Of a DNA stretch of 64,000 nt, positions 4,734 to 43,794 are shown one piece after another (positions within the stretch are counted from its first letter, which is position 1; the number at the start of each line of letters is the position of its first letter). The notes under the pieces were generated by a model, which was given only the letters and a program-made list of their open reading frames with translations, was not told the origin of the DNA and searched no databases. The DNA comes from Escherichia coli (GTDB lineage Bacteria; Pseudomonadota; Gammaproteobacteria; Enterobacterales; Enterobacteriaceae). The position numbers and the translations under genes are program-made. The DNA lies in NCBI RefSeq assembly GCF_016903815.1, contig NZ_CP069973.1, one strand, 5' to 3'.

Positions 4734-5654
4734 TTAATAGCGTGAAGGAACGCCTTCCGGGCGTGTTTTAAAGCGACGGTGTAACCACATATACTGCTCT
4801 GGTGCCATCATGATGCATTTTTCGACCACTTTGTTCATCCACGCGGCGGTGGTTTCGGCATCATCCAGCGGCGGAGAACACTCTGGCGGCAGCATAATCA
4901 ACTGATACCCTTTGCCATCTGGCTTACGGCGTGGAACGAAGGGCACCAGACATGCGCCGGACATCCGTGCCAGCATCCAGGTTCCGGTCGTGGTCGCAGC
5001 CTGCTCAACGGCAAACAACGGGACGAAAACGCTTGAGCGCGGGCCGTAATCATGATCCGGTGCGTACCAGACCACTTCGCCTTTTTTCAGGGCTTTAATC
5101 ATGCCTTTTAAATCTTTGCGGTCGAGCATCGATTTATTTGAGCGCAAACGGCCCCAGGTTTGTAGCCAGTCAATCAGTGGATTATCGTTCGGGCGGTAAA
5201 CGCCAATCCCCGGTTCCTGCATACCAAACTGCCGCGCACCCAGCTCCAGTGTCAGAAAATGGATGCCAACTAACAGGATGCCGCGTTTTTGCGCCTGCAC
5301 GTCACGAATGTGTTCCATGCCGATCACTTCCGTCCAGCGGGCGATTCTGCGGTCCGGCCAGAACCACGCCATGCCAGTTTCCATCAGTCCCATGCCAACG
5401 GATTCGAAATTCTTCACCACCATTTTACGGCGTTCTTGTTCGCTCATTTCCGGGAAGCACAGTTCCAGGTTGCGATGCACAATTTTTGCGCGTCGTTTCA
5501 TAAAACGTAACGCCAGTTTTCCTAATCCACAACCGAGGCGGTAGATAACCGGGTAGGGCAATTGCACGACTAACCAAAGTACGCCAATACCCAACCAGGT
5601 TAACCAATAACGCGGATGAAGCAGTGCGGTGGAGAACTTGGGTAGATTCGTCAT
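4734..5654 (-). CDS. lpxL: Lipid A biosynthesis lauroyltransferase LpxL (HtrB)
   Basis: 306-aa protein from the internal Met [17 protein letters not shown]...; the 21-codon N-terminal extension in the ORF track is judged spurious. Confidence 0.92.
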
Positions 5655-10635: not shown

Positions 10636-11682
10636 TTATTGTTTAACGGACCAGCGTACCGTTTCCCCGGCGAGGAATGGCACCAGTGTGTCATCAGTCA
10701 GTGCGATGCTTGCAGCAACCTGTTGTTCTTCGCGGACCAGTTCGATGAATGTGTCGTTGACAGGCAAGCCATAGAACTGCGGGCCGTTTACAGAACAGAA
10801 TGCTTCAAAGTGCTGCAGAGCATTCATCTCTTCAAAGACGGTAGCGTAACTGCCCAGCGCGGTTGGGGCATTGAAGCAGCCCGCGCAGCCGCAGCTACTC
10901 TCTTTGCGATGACGTGCATGCGGCGCAGAATCCGTACCGAGGAATACGCGATTAAAACCGCTGGCGACCAGTTCACGCAATGCCTGTTGGTGAATATTGC
11001 GTTTGAGGATGGGTAGACAATACAGATGTGGACGCACGCCACCAACCAGCATATGGTTGCGGTTAAACATCAGATGCTGCGGAGTGATGGTGGCAGCCAG
11101 CCGTTCATTTCCGTTACGGACATAGTCGGCAGCATCTTTGGTGGTGATGTGCTCAAAAACGACTTTCAGCGCAGTCAGGCGCTGGCGCAGCGGTTCCATC
11201 ACGCTTTCAATAAAGCGCGCTTCACGATCAAAAATGTCGATATCTGCATGTGTCACTTCACCATGCACCAGTAACGGCATACCGATTTTTTCCATGCGCT
11301 CAAGTACCGGCATGATTGCGTCAACTGACGTCACGCCGTGACTGGAGTTAGTGGTTGCGTTTGCCGGGTAAAGTTTGGCAGCGGTGAACACGCCTTCGTT
11401 AAATCCACGCTCAAGCTCATTAGGATCTAGTGAATCTGTCAAATAACAGGTCATCAGCGGGGTGAAATCGTGCCCGGCAGGTACGGCGTCAAGAATACGC
11501 TGGCGATACGCCACGGCAGCCTCAACGGTGGTCACGGGCGGAGCCAGATTGGGCATTACGATAGCCCGTCCATAAATTTCGCTGGTATACGGCACGACAG
11601 TTTTTAACATGTCGCCATCGCGGAGGTGAAGGTGCCAGTCGTCTGGGCGGCGGATCTTTAATACCTGGGATGGTGCAGTCAT
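10636..11682 (-). CDS. pyrC: Dihydroorotase PyrC
   Basis: 348-aa protein with metal-binding HLH motif near the N-terminus ([10 protein letters not shown]). Confidence 0.95.
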
Positions 11683-11733
11683 TAATCTCTATGCTCCGGC
11701 TGAAGGGATGTTTTTGCCGGACACAAAGGATAA

Positions 11734-11749
11734 GCGGAAACGTTTTCCT
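11734..11749. promoter_or_regulatory. Candidate PurR operator upstream of pyrC
   Basis: agcGGAAACGTTTTCCt, with the palindromic AAACGTTT core of PurR boxes; pyrC is a known PurR target. Confidence 0.5.
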
Positions 11750-11787
11750 TTGCACGAAAAATAAAGGGCGCGAATGCGCCCTCGTGA

Positions 11788-12348
11788 TTAATCAGTAAAC
11801 GGAATGACAATTTCGCCTGGCTTCACTTCAATGCCTTTCGCCAGTTTCTTCGCCATTGCTTCGCCCTGGCTGCCATCTTCGCGCAGGACGTAAGCAGGTT
11901 GCTGGTTAAAGTAATTGCGTAATGCCTGGTTCAAATAGGGAAGCAACGTTTGCATCACCGTTTGCATTTTTTCCGGTTGTACCGTCGCATCGACCACTTC
12001 CATCTCTTTCAGGAAGATCGCGCCTTTTTCTTTATCAAACACGGGTAGCGCTTTCAGCTTCAGTTTCATGGTCGCTTTCTGGCTACCGAACAGGGAGTTC
12101 ATGTCCAGATTGGCGTCTCCGGTTAGGGTAACCTTATTCGGCTCTTCGCGACCAATTTGGCTGGTCAGGTTTGTCAGAACAATATGGGCGTCAGCCACGC
12201 CGGGTAAACCGATATCTTTTGAGAAATTATTATGTTTCGCAAGCGACTGGTTAATTTCTTGTTCGGTGATGGTGTATTGGGTGAGTTGATTACAGCCAAC
12301 GAGCAGGCCACTGACGATCAATGCAGCGGCAAATAAAAACTTGTTCAT
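11788..12348 (-). CDS. yceB: Lipoprotein YceB
   Basis: 186-aa protein from MNKFLFAAALIVSGLLVGC (lipobox); the long upstream extension in the ORF track overlaps grxB and is judged spurious. Confidence 0.85.
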   Translation of the reverse strand: MNKFLFAAALIVSGLLVGCNQLTQYTITEQEINQSLAKHNNFSKDIGLPGVADAHIVLTNLTSQIGREEPNKVTLTGDANLDMNSLFGSQKATMKLKLKALPVFDKEKGAIFLKEMEVVDATVQPEKMQTVMQTLLPYLNQALRNYFNQQPAYVLREDGSQGEAMAKKLAKGIEVKPGEIVIPFTD

Positions 12349-30117: not shown

Positions 30118-30902
<785 letters not shown>

Positions 30903-31034: not shown

Positions 31035-34000
31035 TTACTCAACAGGTTGCGGACGCGCAGGAGCGGCAGAGGCATGATGCGTTGCCGTATGACCACCTGC
31101 AGCACCTTTACCTTCGAAGGCAAAAGTAGGGCGCTGCCAGTCACTGTGACGCGGTGCCTCCGGAACATATTCCGGTGCCGGAGCGCGCGTCATTGGCGCG
31201 GTAGCGTGGTTATGCTCAACGGTGACCTCAGGTTTAACCGCGGCTACCGTTTCAACTTCTGCTGCGACTTCGGCGACGACTGGCGCGGCAGGTTGAGCAA
31301 CAACTTCAGGTTCAGCAACCACAACCTCAGCAGTTTCGGCAACTTCTTCAATATCAGCCGTCTCTTCCTGCGGTTCAACCACCGGTTCTGCGTGTTCTGC
31401 AACTTCCTGGGCTATGGCAACATCAGACTCGGTAATCACCTGCGGCTGTTCAGTTACCGCGGCGGCAATCACTTCAGGATGCGTCGTTTCAACCACTTCC
31501 GGTTGCGGTTCGGCAACCTGAACGGGGGCTTCTACAACTTCAGCCACTTCTTCAACAACCGGTGCGCTAACAACAGGTTCGACAGCGGCGGCGACAGGGA
31601 CCTCAGTCACCATCGGCTGCACTTGTACTTCTTCCTGTTCGCGCTGCTCTTCAACCTGTACATCTTGCGGACGTACAATTGGATAGCGGATCCAGACTTT
31701 GCCAGAGGCCAGTTCCGGAGATGCGCACGCTACGGTCAACGGCATTGGCGATTGGGTTGGATAACGCTCGTCACGATAGCGACGACGACGCTGACCACTC
31801 ACGCGCAGGTGACGAGGCGAGCGGCGAGAACGACGCGGCATGCCACCGTTGTCACGGTTATCGGCATTGTTCTCTTCTTGCTGTTCTGGTGCAGCTTGCG
31901 CTACGACTGGCAGCGGGACTTTCACCAGTTCTGTGCGTGGAGCTGGCGCTTCCTGAACAATTGGTTCGGCAGCGACAGTTTCTTCAACCACCGGTGCGAC
32001 TACCGCTTCTTCGGCTACGCTTTGCTCGTAACGCACTTTCTGATTGAGCTGACGCTGTTTACGACGCGGCTGAACCGGACGTACACGTTCTTCCTGTTCG
32101 GTTTCCTGAACAGATTGCTCTTCAACATTCAGCGCCTTCGCTTCTTGTTGCGCCTGACGTTTATCATCGTTACGGCGGCGGCTACGTTCACGACGCGGCG
32201 CTTGCTGCTCGTCGGTGGTACGTGCTTTTTCCGTTACCTCAGCCTGCTGACGGCTCTCACGCGTCTCGGCAGTCTGCTGCTGTGCCTGGCGACGATTACG
32301 ACGGTTTTCTTCGCGATTATCGCTGCCTTCAGTACGTTCACTACGGGTGTCGCGGCGCTCATTACGGTCACGGCGGTTGTTCTGACGAGGCTTGCGACGA
32401 TCCTGTTGACGTTCCGGTTTCGCTTCTGCTTTCGGTGCTGGTTGCTCGGCCGGTTTGGTTTCTTCACCACCGCTGAATAGCGCTTTCAGTGCGCCGAAGA
32501 AGCGGCTCAACAACCCTGGTTGTGCAGGAGATGCTGGTGTTGCCGTTGCAGCTTTAGGTGCTGGGGCTACAACAGGGGCGGCAGGTTCAGCTGGGGTTGG
32601 AGCTGGCGGCACATCCGGCATGGCAAAGGTTGCCAGCGCAGGTTGTTCAGGACGCTTACGTTCAGCGAACTCTTCTTCAGACGGCAGCGCCATCGCTTCT
32701 TCATGCAGCTTCGGCAGCATGTAGCTTAAGGTTGGAGTTTCTTCCCCTTTACGCACGCGCAGCACATGGTAGTGCGGGGTTTCCATCTGATCGTTTGGCA
32801 CAATCACACAGCGCACGCCGTCCTGACGAGTTTCAATCGCATTCACTGCAGAACGTTTTTCATTCAGCAGGTAAGACGCGATTGGCACAGGAACAATGGC
32901 GTGAACTTCCTGAGTGTTCTCTTTCAGCGCTTCTTCTTCGATCAGACGCAGAATAGAGAGCGACAACGATTCGTTGTCACGCACGGTACCGGTACCGGAG
33001 CAGCGCGGGCAGACGTGATGGCTGGATTCACCCAGTGATGGGCTCAGACGCTGACGGGACATTTCCAGCAGGCCAAAGCGAGAAATATGGCTGATTTGAA
33101 TACGCGCCCGGTCCTGACGCACCGCTTCACGCAGACGGTTTTCTACCGCACGCTGGTGGCGTACTGGCGTCATGTCGATGAAGTCGATAACAATCAGGCC
33201 GCCGAGGTCACGCAGGCGCAGCTGACGAGCAATCTCATCGGCAGCTTCGAGGTTGGTGTTAAACGCGGTTTCTTCGATATCGCCGCCGCGGGTCGCGCGT
33301 GCGGAGTTGATGTCGATGGCGGTTAACGCTTCGGTGCTGTCGATAACAATGGAACCACCGGATGGCAGACGAACTTCACGCTGGAAGGCGGACTCAATCT
33401 GTGACTCGATCTGGTAGTGGCTGAACAGCGGGATCTCGCCGGTGTACAGTTTGATTTTGCTGCTGAAATCCGGGCGACCTAATGCAGCGATATGCTGGCG
33501 TGCCAGTTCGAGCACTTTCGGGTTATCGATAAGGATTTCGCCGATGTCCTGACGTAAGTAATCGCGGAATGCGCGAACGATTACGTTGCTCTCCTGATGA
33601 ATCAGGAACGGAGCTGGGCGGCTTTCAGCGGCTTTTTTGATGGCTTCCCAGTGTTTCAGACGGAAGCTTAAATCCCATTGCAGCGCCTCAGCAGATTTGC
33701 CGACGCCAGCGGTGCGCACGATAAGCCCCATGCCTTCCGGCAGTTCAAGGCTTGCCAGTGCTTCTTTTAATTCGGTACGGTCGTCGCCTTCGATACGACG
33801 AGAAATGCCACCCGCGCGCGGGTTGTTCGGCATCAGAACCAGATAGCTACCCGCCAGACTGATAAAGGTGGTTAATGCCGCGCCTTTGTTGCCGCGCTCT
33901 TCTTTATCGATCTGAACAATGACTTCCTGACCTTCACGCAACACATCTTTAATGTTGGGACGACCATGAGCACTGTAGTTAGCAGGGAAATATTCGCGGG

Positions 34001-43081: not shown

Positions 43082-43794
43082 TTGTGCACAGAAAACCCCC
43101 AGCTAGGCTGGGGGTTCCGGAAAGCTTTCAGCTTTAAGCCAGTTATTAAAACCCCTTTTGATTTGTTAAAACACCTTGCGGTCTGGCAACTGCAAGTGTC
43201 AAACAAGAAATCAAAAGGGGGTCCCAATGGGGAACGAAAAGAGCTTAGCGCACACCCGATGGAACTGTAAATATCACATAGTTTTTGCGCCAAAATACCG
43301 AAGACAGGTGTTCTACAGAGAGAAGCGTAGAGCAATAGGCAGTATTTTGAGAAAGCTGTGTGAGTGGAAAAGTGTACGGATTCTGGAAGCTGAATGCTGT
43401 GCAGATCATATCCATATGCTTGTGGAGATCCCGCCCAAAATGAGCGTATCCGGCTTTATGGGATATCTGAAAGGGAAAAGCAGTCTGATGCTTTACGAGC
43501 AGTTTGGTGATTTGAAATTCAAATACAGGAACAGGGAGTTCTGGTGCAGAGGGTACTACGTCGATACGGTGGGTAAGAACACGGCGAAGATACAGGATTA
43601 CATAAAGCACCAGCTTGAAGAGGATAAAATGGGAGAGCAGTTATCGATTCCCTATCCGGGCAGCCCGTTTACGGGCCGTAAGTAACGAAGTTGGATGCAA
43701 ATGTCAGATCGTGTGCGCCTGTTAGGGCGCGGCTGGTAAGAGAGCCTTATAGGCGCATTTGAAAAACCTCCGGCTATGCCGGAGGATATTTATT
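43082..43794 (+). mobile_element. IS200 (IS200/IS605 family) insertion sequence, copy 1
   Basis: About 713 bp that is apparently identical to 59980..60692 (ORF-track translations identical on both strands); encodes an HuH Y1 transposase; left-end hairpin cccccag-ctagg-ctggggg (43096..43114) and right-end hairpin cctccggc-tat-gccggagg; boundaries set by where the two copies diverge, plus or minus a few bp. Confidence 0.9.
43227..43685 (+). CDS. tnpA: IS200 transposase TnpA (HuH Y1 family)
   Basis: 152-aa protein MGNEKSLAHTRWNCKYHIVFAPKYRR...ADHIHMLVEIP...; HxH motif and Tyr-containing C-terminal region; closely matches Salmonella IS200 TnpA from memory. Confidence 0.9.
   Translation: MGNEKSLAHTRWNCKYHIVFAPKYRRQVFYREKRRAIGSILRKLCEWKSVRILEAECCADHIHMLVEIPPKMSVSGFMGYLKGKSSLMLYEQFGDLKFKYRNREFWCRGYYVDTVGKNTAKIQDYIKHQLEEDKMGEQLSIPYPGSPFTGRK

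Follow-up and report, generated by a model that had tools for sequence, protein, structure and literature searches.

A conserved, sub-consensus site in the spacer of the Escherichia coli pyrC promoter is very probably its known PurR operator

The 16-bp imperfect palindrome AGGAAAACGTTTCCGC, read in the sense direction of pyrC at positions 11749–11734, is with little room for doubt the PurR operator of the E. coli pyrC promoter (the window, in which all positions are numbered, is the whole 64-kb stretch of DNA that was analysed). It is the E. coli pyrC PurR operator that has already been described and is, as such, already known: the textbook connection through which an excess of purines reduces pyrimidine synthesis in this species.

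The pyrC promoter and its surroundings

The intergenic region between pyrC and yceB extends exactly from 11683 to 11787 (105 bp). The stretch around it, 11300–12200, is E. coli chromosome; it is found in 5425 of 5426 complete genomes and is 100% identical to several of them. Strain 7/2 is one of those that match this stretch at 100%, and the strain background of the window is non-K-12. The PyrC open reading frame matches the TIGR00856 profile with 556.5 bits (cut-off 293). The region is organized as follows.

10636–11682, minus strand: pyrC coding sequence (dihydroorotase), the regulated gene (TIGR00856; RefSeq annotation)
11683–11732, minus strand: match to Rfam RF02372 PyrC_leader (68.7 bits, gathering score 50, E = 5.5e-11)
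11696–11720, minus strand: leader hairpin CCGGC (11720–11716)/GCCGG (11700–11696), from folding and the Rfam structure
11718–11721, minus strand: alternative transcription starts TCCG, from the published description
11727–11732, minus strand: −10 hexamer TATCCT, 4/6 to consensus (conservation; first bases of Rfam PyrC_leader)
11734–11749, minus strand: very probable PurR operator, the 16-bp imperfect palindrome (matrix, conservation, literature)
11750–11755, minus strand: −35-like hexamer GTGCAA, 3/6 to TTGACA, 17 bp 5′ of the −10, deduced from the spacing
11764–11783, minus strand: intrinsic terminator stem-loop of yceB (terminator scan: 8 pairs, 6 of them G-C, then a T-run)
11788–12348, minus strand: yceB coding sequence (lipoprotein gene), next upstream of pyrC and on the same strand

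The operator occupies the whole spacer between GTGCAA (11755–11750) and TATCCT (11732–11727), with a single T separating its 3′ end from the −10 hexamer, and its centre lies at about −21.5 relative to the C start at 11720. PurR sites are generally found between −35 and −10, their commonest position (Cho et al., 2011; PMC3159470). After TATCCT the sense strand of pyrC runs through TTGTGT, CCGGC (11720–11716), a 15-nt loop and GCCGGAG (11700–11694), and an 11-nt spacer then leads to the ATG (11682). A scan of 11500–12000 for consensus sigma-70 promoters found nothing, because both hexamers are weak (GTGCAA 3/6, TATCCT 4/6); the promoter is assigned from conservation, the Rfam model and published descriptions.

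The original prediction had located the site in the pyrC leader, some 50 to 65 bp upstream of the pyrC start. Its distance was close to the 51–67 bp that we measure from the ATG (A at 11682), but the site belongs to the promoter spacer instead, and the leader, matched by RF02372 at 11732–11683, follows directly downstream. That match is full length (model positions 1–50 of 50) and runs from the −10 hexamer to the base before the ATG. The operator (11749–11734) lies wholly upstream of model position 1 (11732); it abuts the model and is outside it.

On the other side of the promoter, the yceB terminator reads GAGGGCGCATTCGCGCCCTT on the pyrC sense strand and, together with its T-tract, spans 11783 to ∼ 11758; the T-tract itself, TTTATTTTT (∼ 11766–11758), extends to the pyrC −35. 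The A/T-rich tract immediately 5′ of the −35 (window 11757–11783, minus strand) might also serve as an UP-like element, and a T- or A-rich run precedes the conserved TGCAAA in many other Enterobacteriaceae loci as well. At a distance from pyrC, the matching record NZ_CP023820.1 carries a GNAT-family acetyltransferase/DUF1778 pair resembling a toxin-antitoxin in its flgL–rne interval and an IS200C transposase in its fabF–pabC interval; their window coordinates (∼ 30118–30902 and 43227–43685) are taken over from this record, whose identity with the window was verified over 8.5–14.4 kb.

Matrix score and conservation of the operator

On the plus strand 11733–11749 reads agcGGAAACGTTTTCCt, exactly the 17-mer that had been quoted, and the palindromic PurR core claimed for it, AAACGTTT, is present at 11738–11745 with its central CpG (11741/11742) between an A-tract and a T-tract. 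The PurR consensus ACGNAAACGTTTGCNT specifies 14 positions, and AGGAAAACGTTTCCGC agrees with it at 11 of them. Cho et al. (2011; PMC3159470) list 28 ChIP-chip-derived sixteen-mers in their Table 1, on which a position weight matrix for PurR was built; these training sites exclude pyrC, and the pyrC site is therefore an independent test. The scan with this matrix, which the original prediction had proposed as a check, places AGGAAAACGTTTCCGC on the pyrC sense strand at the top of the 64-kb window with 16.54 bits. This score falls within the leave-one-out range of the true sites (7.4–25.2 bits), in its lower third, and the pyrC site comes ninth from the bottom when ranked together with the 28 reference sites. 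It is the sole strong match in intergenic DNA of the window. The second-ranked matches sit within the lpxL and rne coding sequences; these runners-up, ACGAAAACGCTTGAGC in lpxL (window 5023–5038, plus strand, 14.4 bits) and ACGTAATCGTTCGCGC in rne (window 33571–33586, minus strand, 13.4 bits), are intragenic and within chance expectation.

By itself, the matrix score of the pyrC site does not exceed chance on a window-wide basis. Under a first-order Markov null, 31% of random windows reach 16.54 bits, with a mean of 0.35 matches per window. An analytic i.i.d. null expects 0.15 such matches per window, which is optimistic in comparison with the Markov null, and we adopted the Markov figure as the harsher of the two. 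In a given 105-bp region, ∼ 0.0006 matches of this quality are expected under the Markov null. The core on which the original prediction was based is there, but taken alone it is statistically ordinary: AAACGTTT is not enriched (3 in the window versus 1.85 expected, and 29 of 100 shuffles reach 3), nor is the 12-bp GCAAACGTTTGC with up to two mismatches (3 in the window versus 5.9 expected). The site is distinguished from a chance match because of its position, its cross-species conservation and the published experiments, and not because of the motif match.

Each species being represented by a single genome, a scan yielded 80 pyrC loci, a set that lacks Salmonella, Klebsiella pneumoniae and Enterobacter cloacae; family assignments were verified for representative genera. 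Wherever PyrC shares at least 80% identity with the E. coli protein, in 16 of 16 loci, the PurR box is present, with scores of 14.8–18.8 bits and at 65–90 bp upstream of the ATG. These 16 Enterobacteriaceae loci are from Escherichia albertii, two Citrobacter, Kluyvera, Pseudocitrobacter, Superficieibacter, Pseudescherichia, several Enterobacter/Klebsiella-labelled isolates, Mangrovibacter and two MAGs, and scores in the same range are rarely reached in their 1-kb coding sequences. The upstream box is absent from all 17 loci of other Enterobacterales families (Yersinia, Rahnella, Erwinia, Rosenbergiella, Pantoea, Pectobacterium, Brenneria, Acerihabitans, Hafnia, Edwardsiella, Photorhabdus and Arsenophonus), where nothing exceeds 6.2 bits, and almost none of the more distant outgroups among the 80 loci has it.

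Mean column identity along the 17-sequence Enterobacteriaceae alignment is distributed as follows.

Upstream of the −35: 0.47
−35 hexamer: 0.96 (5 of 6 columns invariant)
PurR 16-mer: 0.94 (10 of 16 columns invariant)
−10 hexamer: 0.97 (5 of 6 columns invariant)
Start sites and 5′ arm of the hairpin: 0.96
Hairpin loop: 0.69, of varying length
3′ arm and Shine-Dalgarno sequence: 1.00
Spacer between the Shine-Dalgarno sequence and the ATG: 0.47

All eight columns of AAACGTTT are invariant in the 17 sequences. Substitutions in the operator are mostly at positions 2 (G/C) and 13 (C/A) and rare at 4, 5, 15 and 16, and the substituted positions are those that the matrix tolerates, position 13 excepted. 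Both arms of the leader hairpin are invariant, and its loop differs in sequence and length. The sequence of promoter spacers is normally not conserved; a conserved spacer is unusual and points to a bound factor.

Within the species, 5372 of 5423 complete genomes have exactly the same 45-bp core (11716–11760), although the surrounding, mostly coding 901 bp show 1–5% divergence in ∼ 94% of genomes. The remaining 51 genomes carry one or two mismatches in the core. The sole core variant inspected among these, that of isolate SC476 (NZ_LR778151.1, L082:81-125), carries A in place of G at operator position 3, a highly informative position, and reads AGAAAAACGTTTCCGC.

Purine control, the adjacent leader and alternative readings

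The literature describes pyrC as a PurR target established by experiment. The pyrC region is one of 15 PurR regions characterized by in vitro binding and in vivo mutation (PMC3159470), where the binding and mutation evidence is credited to Choi & Zalkin (1990) and Wilson & Turnbough (1990). Co-repressor-dependent binding of PurR at pyrC is likewise attributed to Choi & Zalkin (1990) by PMC3159470, PMC6245113 and PMC13056197, and pyrC transcript levels are altered in a purR deletion (Cho et al., 2011; PMC3159470). PurR represses pyrC and pyrD far less than it does the pur genes (Charlier et al., 2018; PMC6245113); for pyrC it is modest and similar to that of carAB P1 (PMC6245113), and a 2026 paper (PMC13056197) attributes to Choi & Zalkin a co-repressor response of ∼ 2.5-fold. 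PurR ChIP-chip with and without adenine missed the pyrC promoter, which the authors call unexplained; pyrC and glnB are the only two known sites that went undetected by Cho et al. (PMC3159470). A study of PurR in ExPEC (PMC12858057) has no pyrC binding data, its EMSA having covered the purE promoter only. The claim that the site is a PurR operator and belongs to the known purine-repressor control of pyrC is thus borne out by matrix rank, promoter position, conservation in 16 of 16 loci and the literature.

The main control of pyrC is the pyrimidine-responsive leader, and the PurR box is a second, purine-responsive input. According to the published description, high CTP favours initiation at C (11720/11719), and a low CTP/GTP ratio favours initiation at G (11718). 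The longer transcript has two additional Cs compared with the G-started one (PMC6524683), with which CC at 11720/11719 and G at 11718 agree. The 3′ arm of the leader hairpin overlaps the Shine-Dalgarno sequence GGAG (11697–11694). When folded, a transcript from C11720 forms the CCGGC/GCCGG hairpin at −8.1 kcal/mol, and just three pairs (−3.0 kcal/mol) are left in a transcript from G11718; the Rfam consensus structure has the identical five pairs. The folding energetics reproduce the published start-site model of the pyrC leader.

We propose the following mechanism. When purines are plentiful, PurR, a dimer of the LacI/GalR family, would bind AGGAAAACGTTTCCGC with hypoxanthine or guanine as co-repressor. 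Located in the −35/−10 spacer, it would exclude RNA polymerase, presumably by steric occlusion, and lower transcription initiation. Repression at this sub-consensus operator is modest, about 2- to 2.5-fold. This purine input is superimposed on the pyrimidine control encoded immediately downstream, in which the CTP/GTP ratio selects between the C and G starts and only the longer, C-started transcript folds the CCGGC/GCCGG hairpin over the Shine-Dalgarno sequence. For the binding of PurR, the repression that depends on purR and the switch between start sites we rely on published work; the present analysis itself shows the sequence with its matrix match, the placement of the site with respect to the −10 and the leader, its conservation and the energetics of the hairpin.

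The weakness of the site can be traced to its half-sites. The consensus GCAA is in neither of them, position 4 being A and position 13 being C. G occupies position 13 in 27 of the 28 reference sites, gadX also being without it. It is the most informative of the flanking positions, and a change from C to G would raise the pyrC site by 6.7 bits, from 16.5 to 23.3. The missing G is a quantitative weakness and does not disqualify the pyrC operator. G is never found at position 13 in the 17 Enterobacteriaceae sequences, which have C or, in five of them, A there, and we infer that this position is the cause of the weak repression.

The two halves of the palindrome differ in their distribution. Four genera of the Yersiniaceae and Pectobacteriaceae that have no distal half (Rahnella, Yersinia, Pectobacterium and Brenneria) still keep the promoter-proximal half TTT(C/A)CGC next to TTATCCTT, so that some of the conservation of the operator could stem from promoter function and not from PurR; the retained block TTT(C/A)CGCTTATCCTT, which comprises the half-box and the −10, lies ∼ 90–110 bp upstream of pyrC in six loci (L016, L017, L020, L021, L022 and L024). 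From this pattern the promoter-proximal half may be older than the complete palindrome and held in place by the needs of the promoter; the distal half A(C/G)GAAAACG may have been gained in the Enterobacteriaceae lineage, or lost several times elsewhere. The start region in the same four genera is CCCCGCCG and not (C)CCGGC, and the leader hairpin may be built differently in these families.

Three other readings of the site were weighed against that of a PurR operator. A chance match without regulatory function would account for the chance frequency of the AAACGTTT core and of the 12-mer consensus, and for an equally good matrix match in 31% of random windows. Against this, the box is kept at the same position in 16 of 16 orthologous promoters whose flanks are scrambled, the core hardly varies among 5423 E. 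coli genomes, and PurR binding and repression have been published (PMC3159470; PMC6245113); we consider chance extremely improbable. The conservation pattern effectively refutes it. Conservation alone could, in principle, reflect the pyrC core promoter, the block serving as spacer or extended −10 in polymerase binding or start choice, with an incidental likeness to PurR sites. That TTT(C/A)CGC and TTATCCTT are retained together in genera lacking the full box (Rahnella, Yersinia, Pectobacterium and Brenneria) is what this reading expects; the matrix score, within chance for a 64-kb window, and the negative PurR ChIP-chip at pyrC (PMC3159470) are also in its favour. However, the distal A(C/G)GAAAACG completes the palindrome and its CpG, is invariant or nearly so in all 17 Enterobacteriaceae sequences and is absent from precisely those loci that are without the full box; promoter spacers, moreover, are as a rule not conserved in sequence. 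Together with the published direct PurR binding and purR-dependent repression (PMC3159470; PMC6245113), this makes the core-promoter reading very unlikely.

It is similarly improbable that a LacI/GalR paralogue, RbsR or Cra/FruR, uses the site instead of, or besides, PurR. The core recognized by RbsR is GAAACGTTTC and that recognized by Cra/FruR is TGAAACGTTTCA. With C at position 13 the right half of the pyrC site is GTTTC, which resembles the RbsR and Cra consensus, versus GTTTG for PurR; the left half AGGAAAAC, however, is of the PurR type and is without the TG of a Cra half-site, and the A found at position 13 in five of 17 taxa fits neither RbsR nor Cra. The reported cross-regulation of purine genes by RbsR (Shimada et al., 2013, as cited in PMC13328217) speaks for a paralogue, which could also account for the PurR ChIP-chip miss, but literature searches gave no link of RbsR or Cra to pyrC, and it is PurR for which binding at pyrC has been reported experimentally (PMC3159470).

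With the site taken as a PurR operator, we also considered, as a speculative and on balance doubtful extension, that the box is an Enterobacteriaceae-restricted addition to an older, promoter-held element, which fixed its low affinity, and that PurR control in Yersinia and at least one Erwinia is exerted through an intragenic box instead, acting as a roadblock like that of purB (see below). The low affinity that has been conserved, the modest repression and perhaps also the negative ChIP-chip would then follow from an older half constrained by the promoter. If this is true, promoter constraint keeps position 13 from becoming G and so holds control at ∼ 2-fold, below ChIP-chip detection.

The import of these results goes little beyond a correct annotation, and they illustrate that a genuine operator is recognizable from sequence alone. 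They refine the picture of the site in three respects: it is a promoter-spacer operator distinct from the neighbouring RNA leader (Rfam PyrC_leader); a motif match of this quality is insignificant alone in 64 kb, so that position and conservation validate it; and the box, restricted to Enterobacteriaceae, has there been kept in a sub-consensus form, a possible reason both for the weak repression and for the negative ChIP-chip.

Comparison with known PurR sites and the PyrC leader

The intragenic sites of purB and purR bind the same repressor through the same type of box (He & Zalkin, 1992, cited in PMC3159470). According to that citation, they lie in coding sequence and block elongation, in contrast to the E. 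coli pyrC site, which is in the promoter. Their roadblock layout resembles, rather than the site in the window, a match found in Yersinia artesiana, Y. aldovae and Erwinia endophytica. These loci have no promoter box and carry a strong PurR-like box inside pyrC at +569:

L017:1770-1785, L018:1770-1785 and L021:1396-1411, antisense: intragenic box AAG(A/G)AAACGATTGCCT, 18.7–20.3 bits

The +569 box spans codons 190–195, which encode the peptide GNRFL, and only 0.04% of the synonymous recodings of GNRFL score at least 18.7 bits; Erwinia psidii, with the identical peptide, scores 9.9 bits at +569. Either a roadblock of the purB kind or a coincidence could account for this box. In Photobacterium piscicola a PurR-like box of 15.4 bits, CAGCAAACGATTGCTT (L063:1082-1097), is located 119 bp upstream of pyrC; its position is unlike that in Enterobacteriaceae, and it may represent an independent PurR input in Vibrionaceae.

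The PyrC_leader RF02372 shares the pyrC–yceB intergenic region with the operator and differs from it in kind: the leader acts at the RNA level as a start-site-dependent, pyrimidine-responsive hairpin over the Shine-Dalgarno sequence, whereas the PurR operator is a DNA element upstream of it.

Canonical operators such as those of purT (ACGAAAACGTTTGCGT), purHD and cvpA-purF (Cho et al., 2011, Table 1) have the same 16-bp palindrome, central CpG, A-tract/T-tract core and overlap with the promoter. They score 22–25 bits versus 16.5 for the pyrC site, which in contrast to them is without a GCAA half-site, gives few-fold repression and is ChIP-chip-negative. Closer to pyrC is the operator of pyrD, CGGAAAACGTTTGCGT, whose left half GGAAAAC is identical to that of pyrC. 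Like pyrC, pyrD is a pyrimidine-pathway gene with weak PurR repression and a start-site-switching leader; unlike pyrC, it has the consensus G at position 13, scores 21.1 bits in the leave-one-out test and was detected by ChIP-chip. With the pyrC PurR operator of E. coli K-12 the site in the window shares gene, species and intergenic region; nothing substantive differs between the two, and K-12-derived laboratory strains are among the genomes with the identical 45-bp core.
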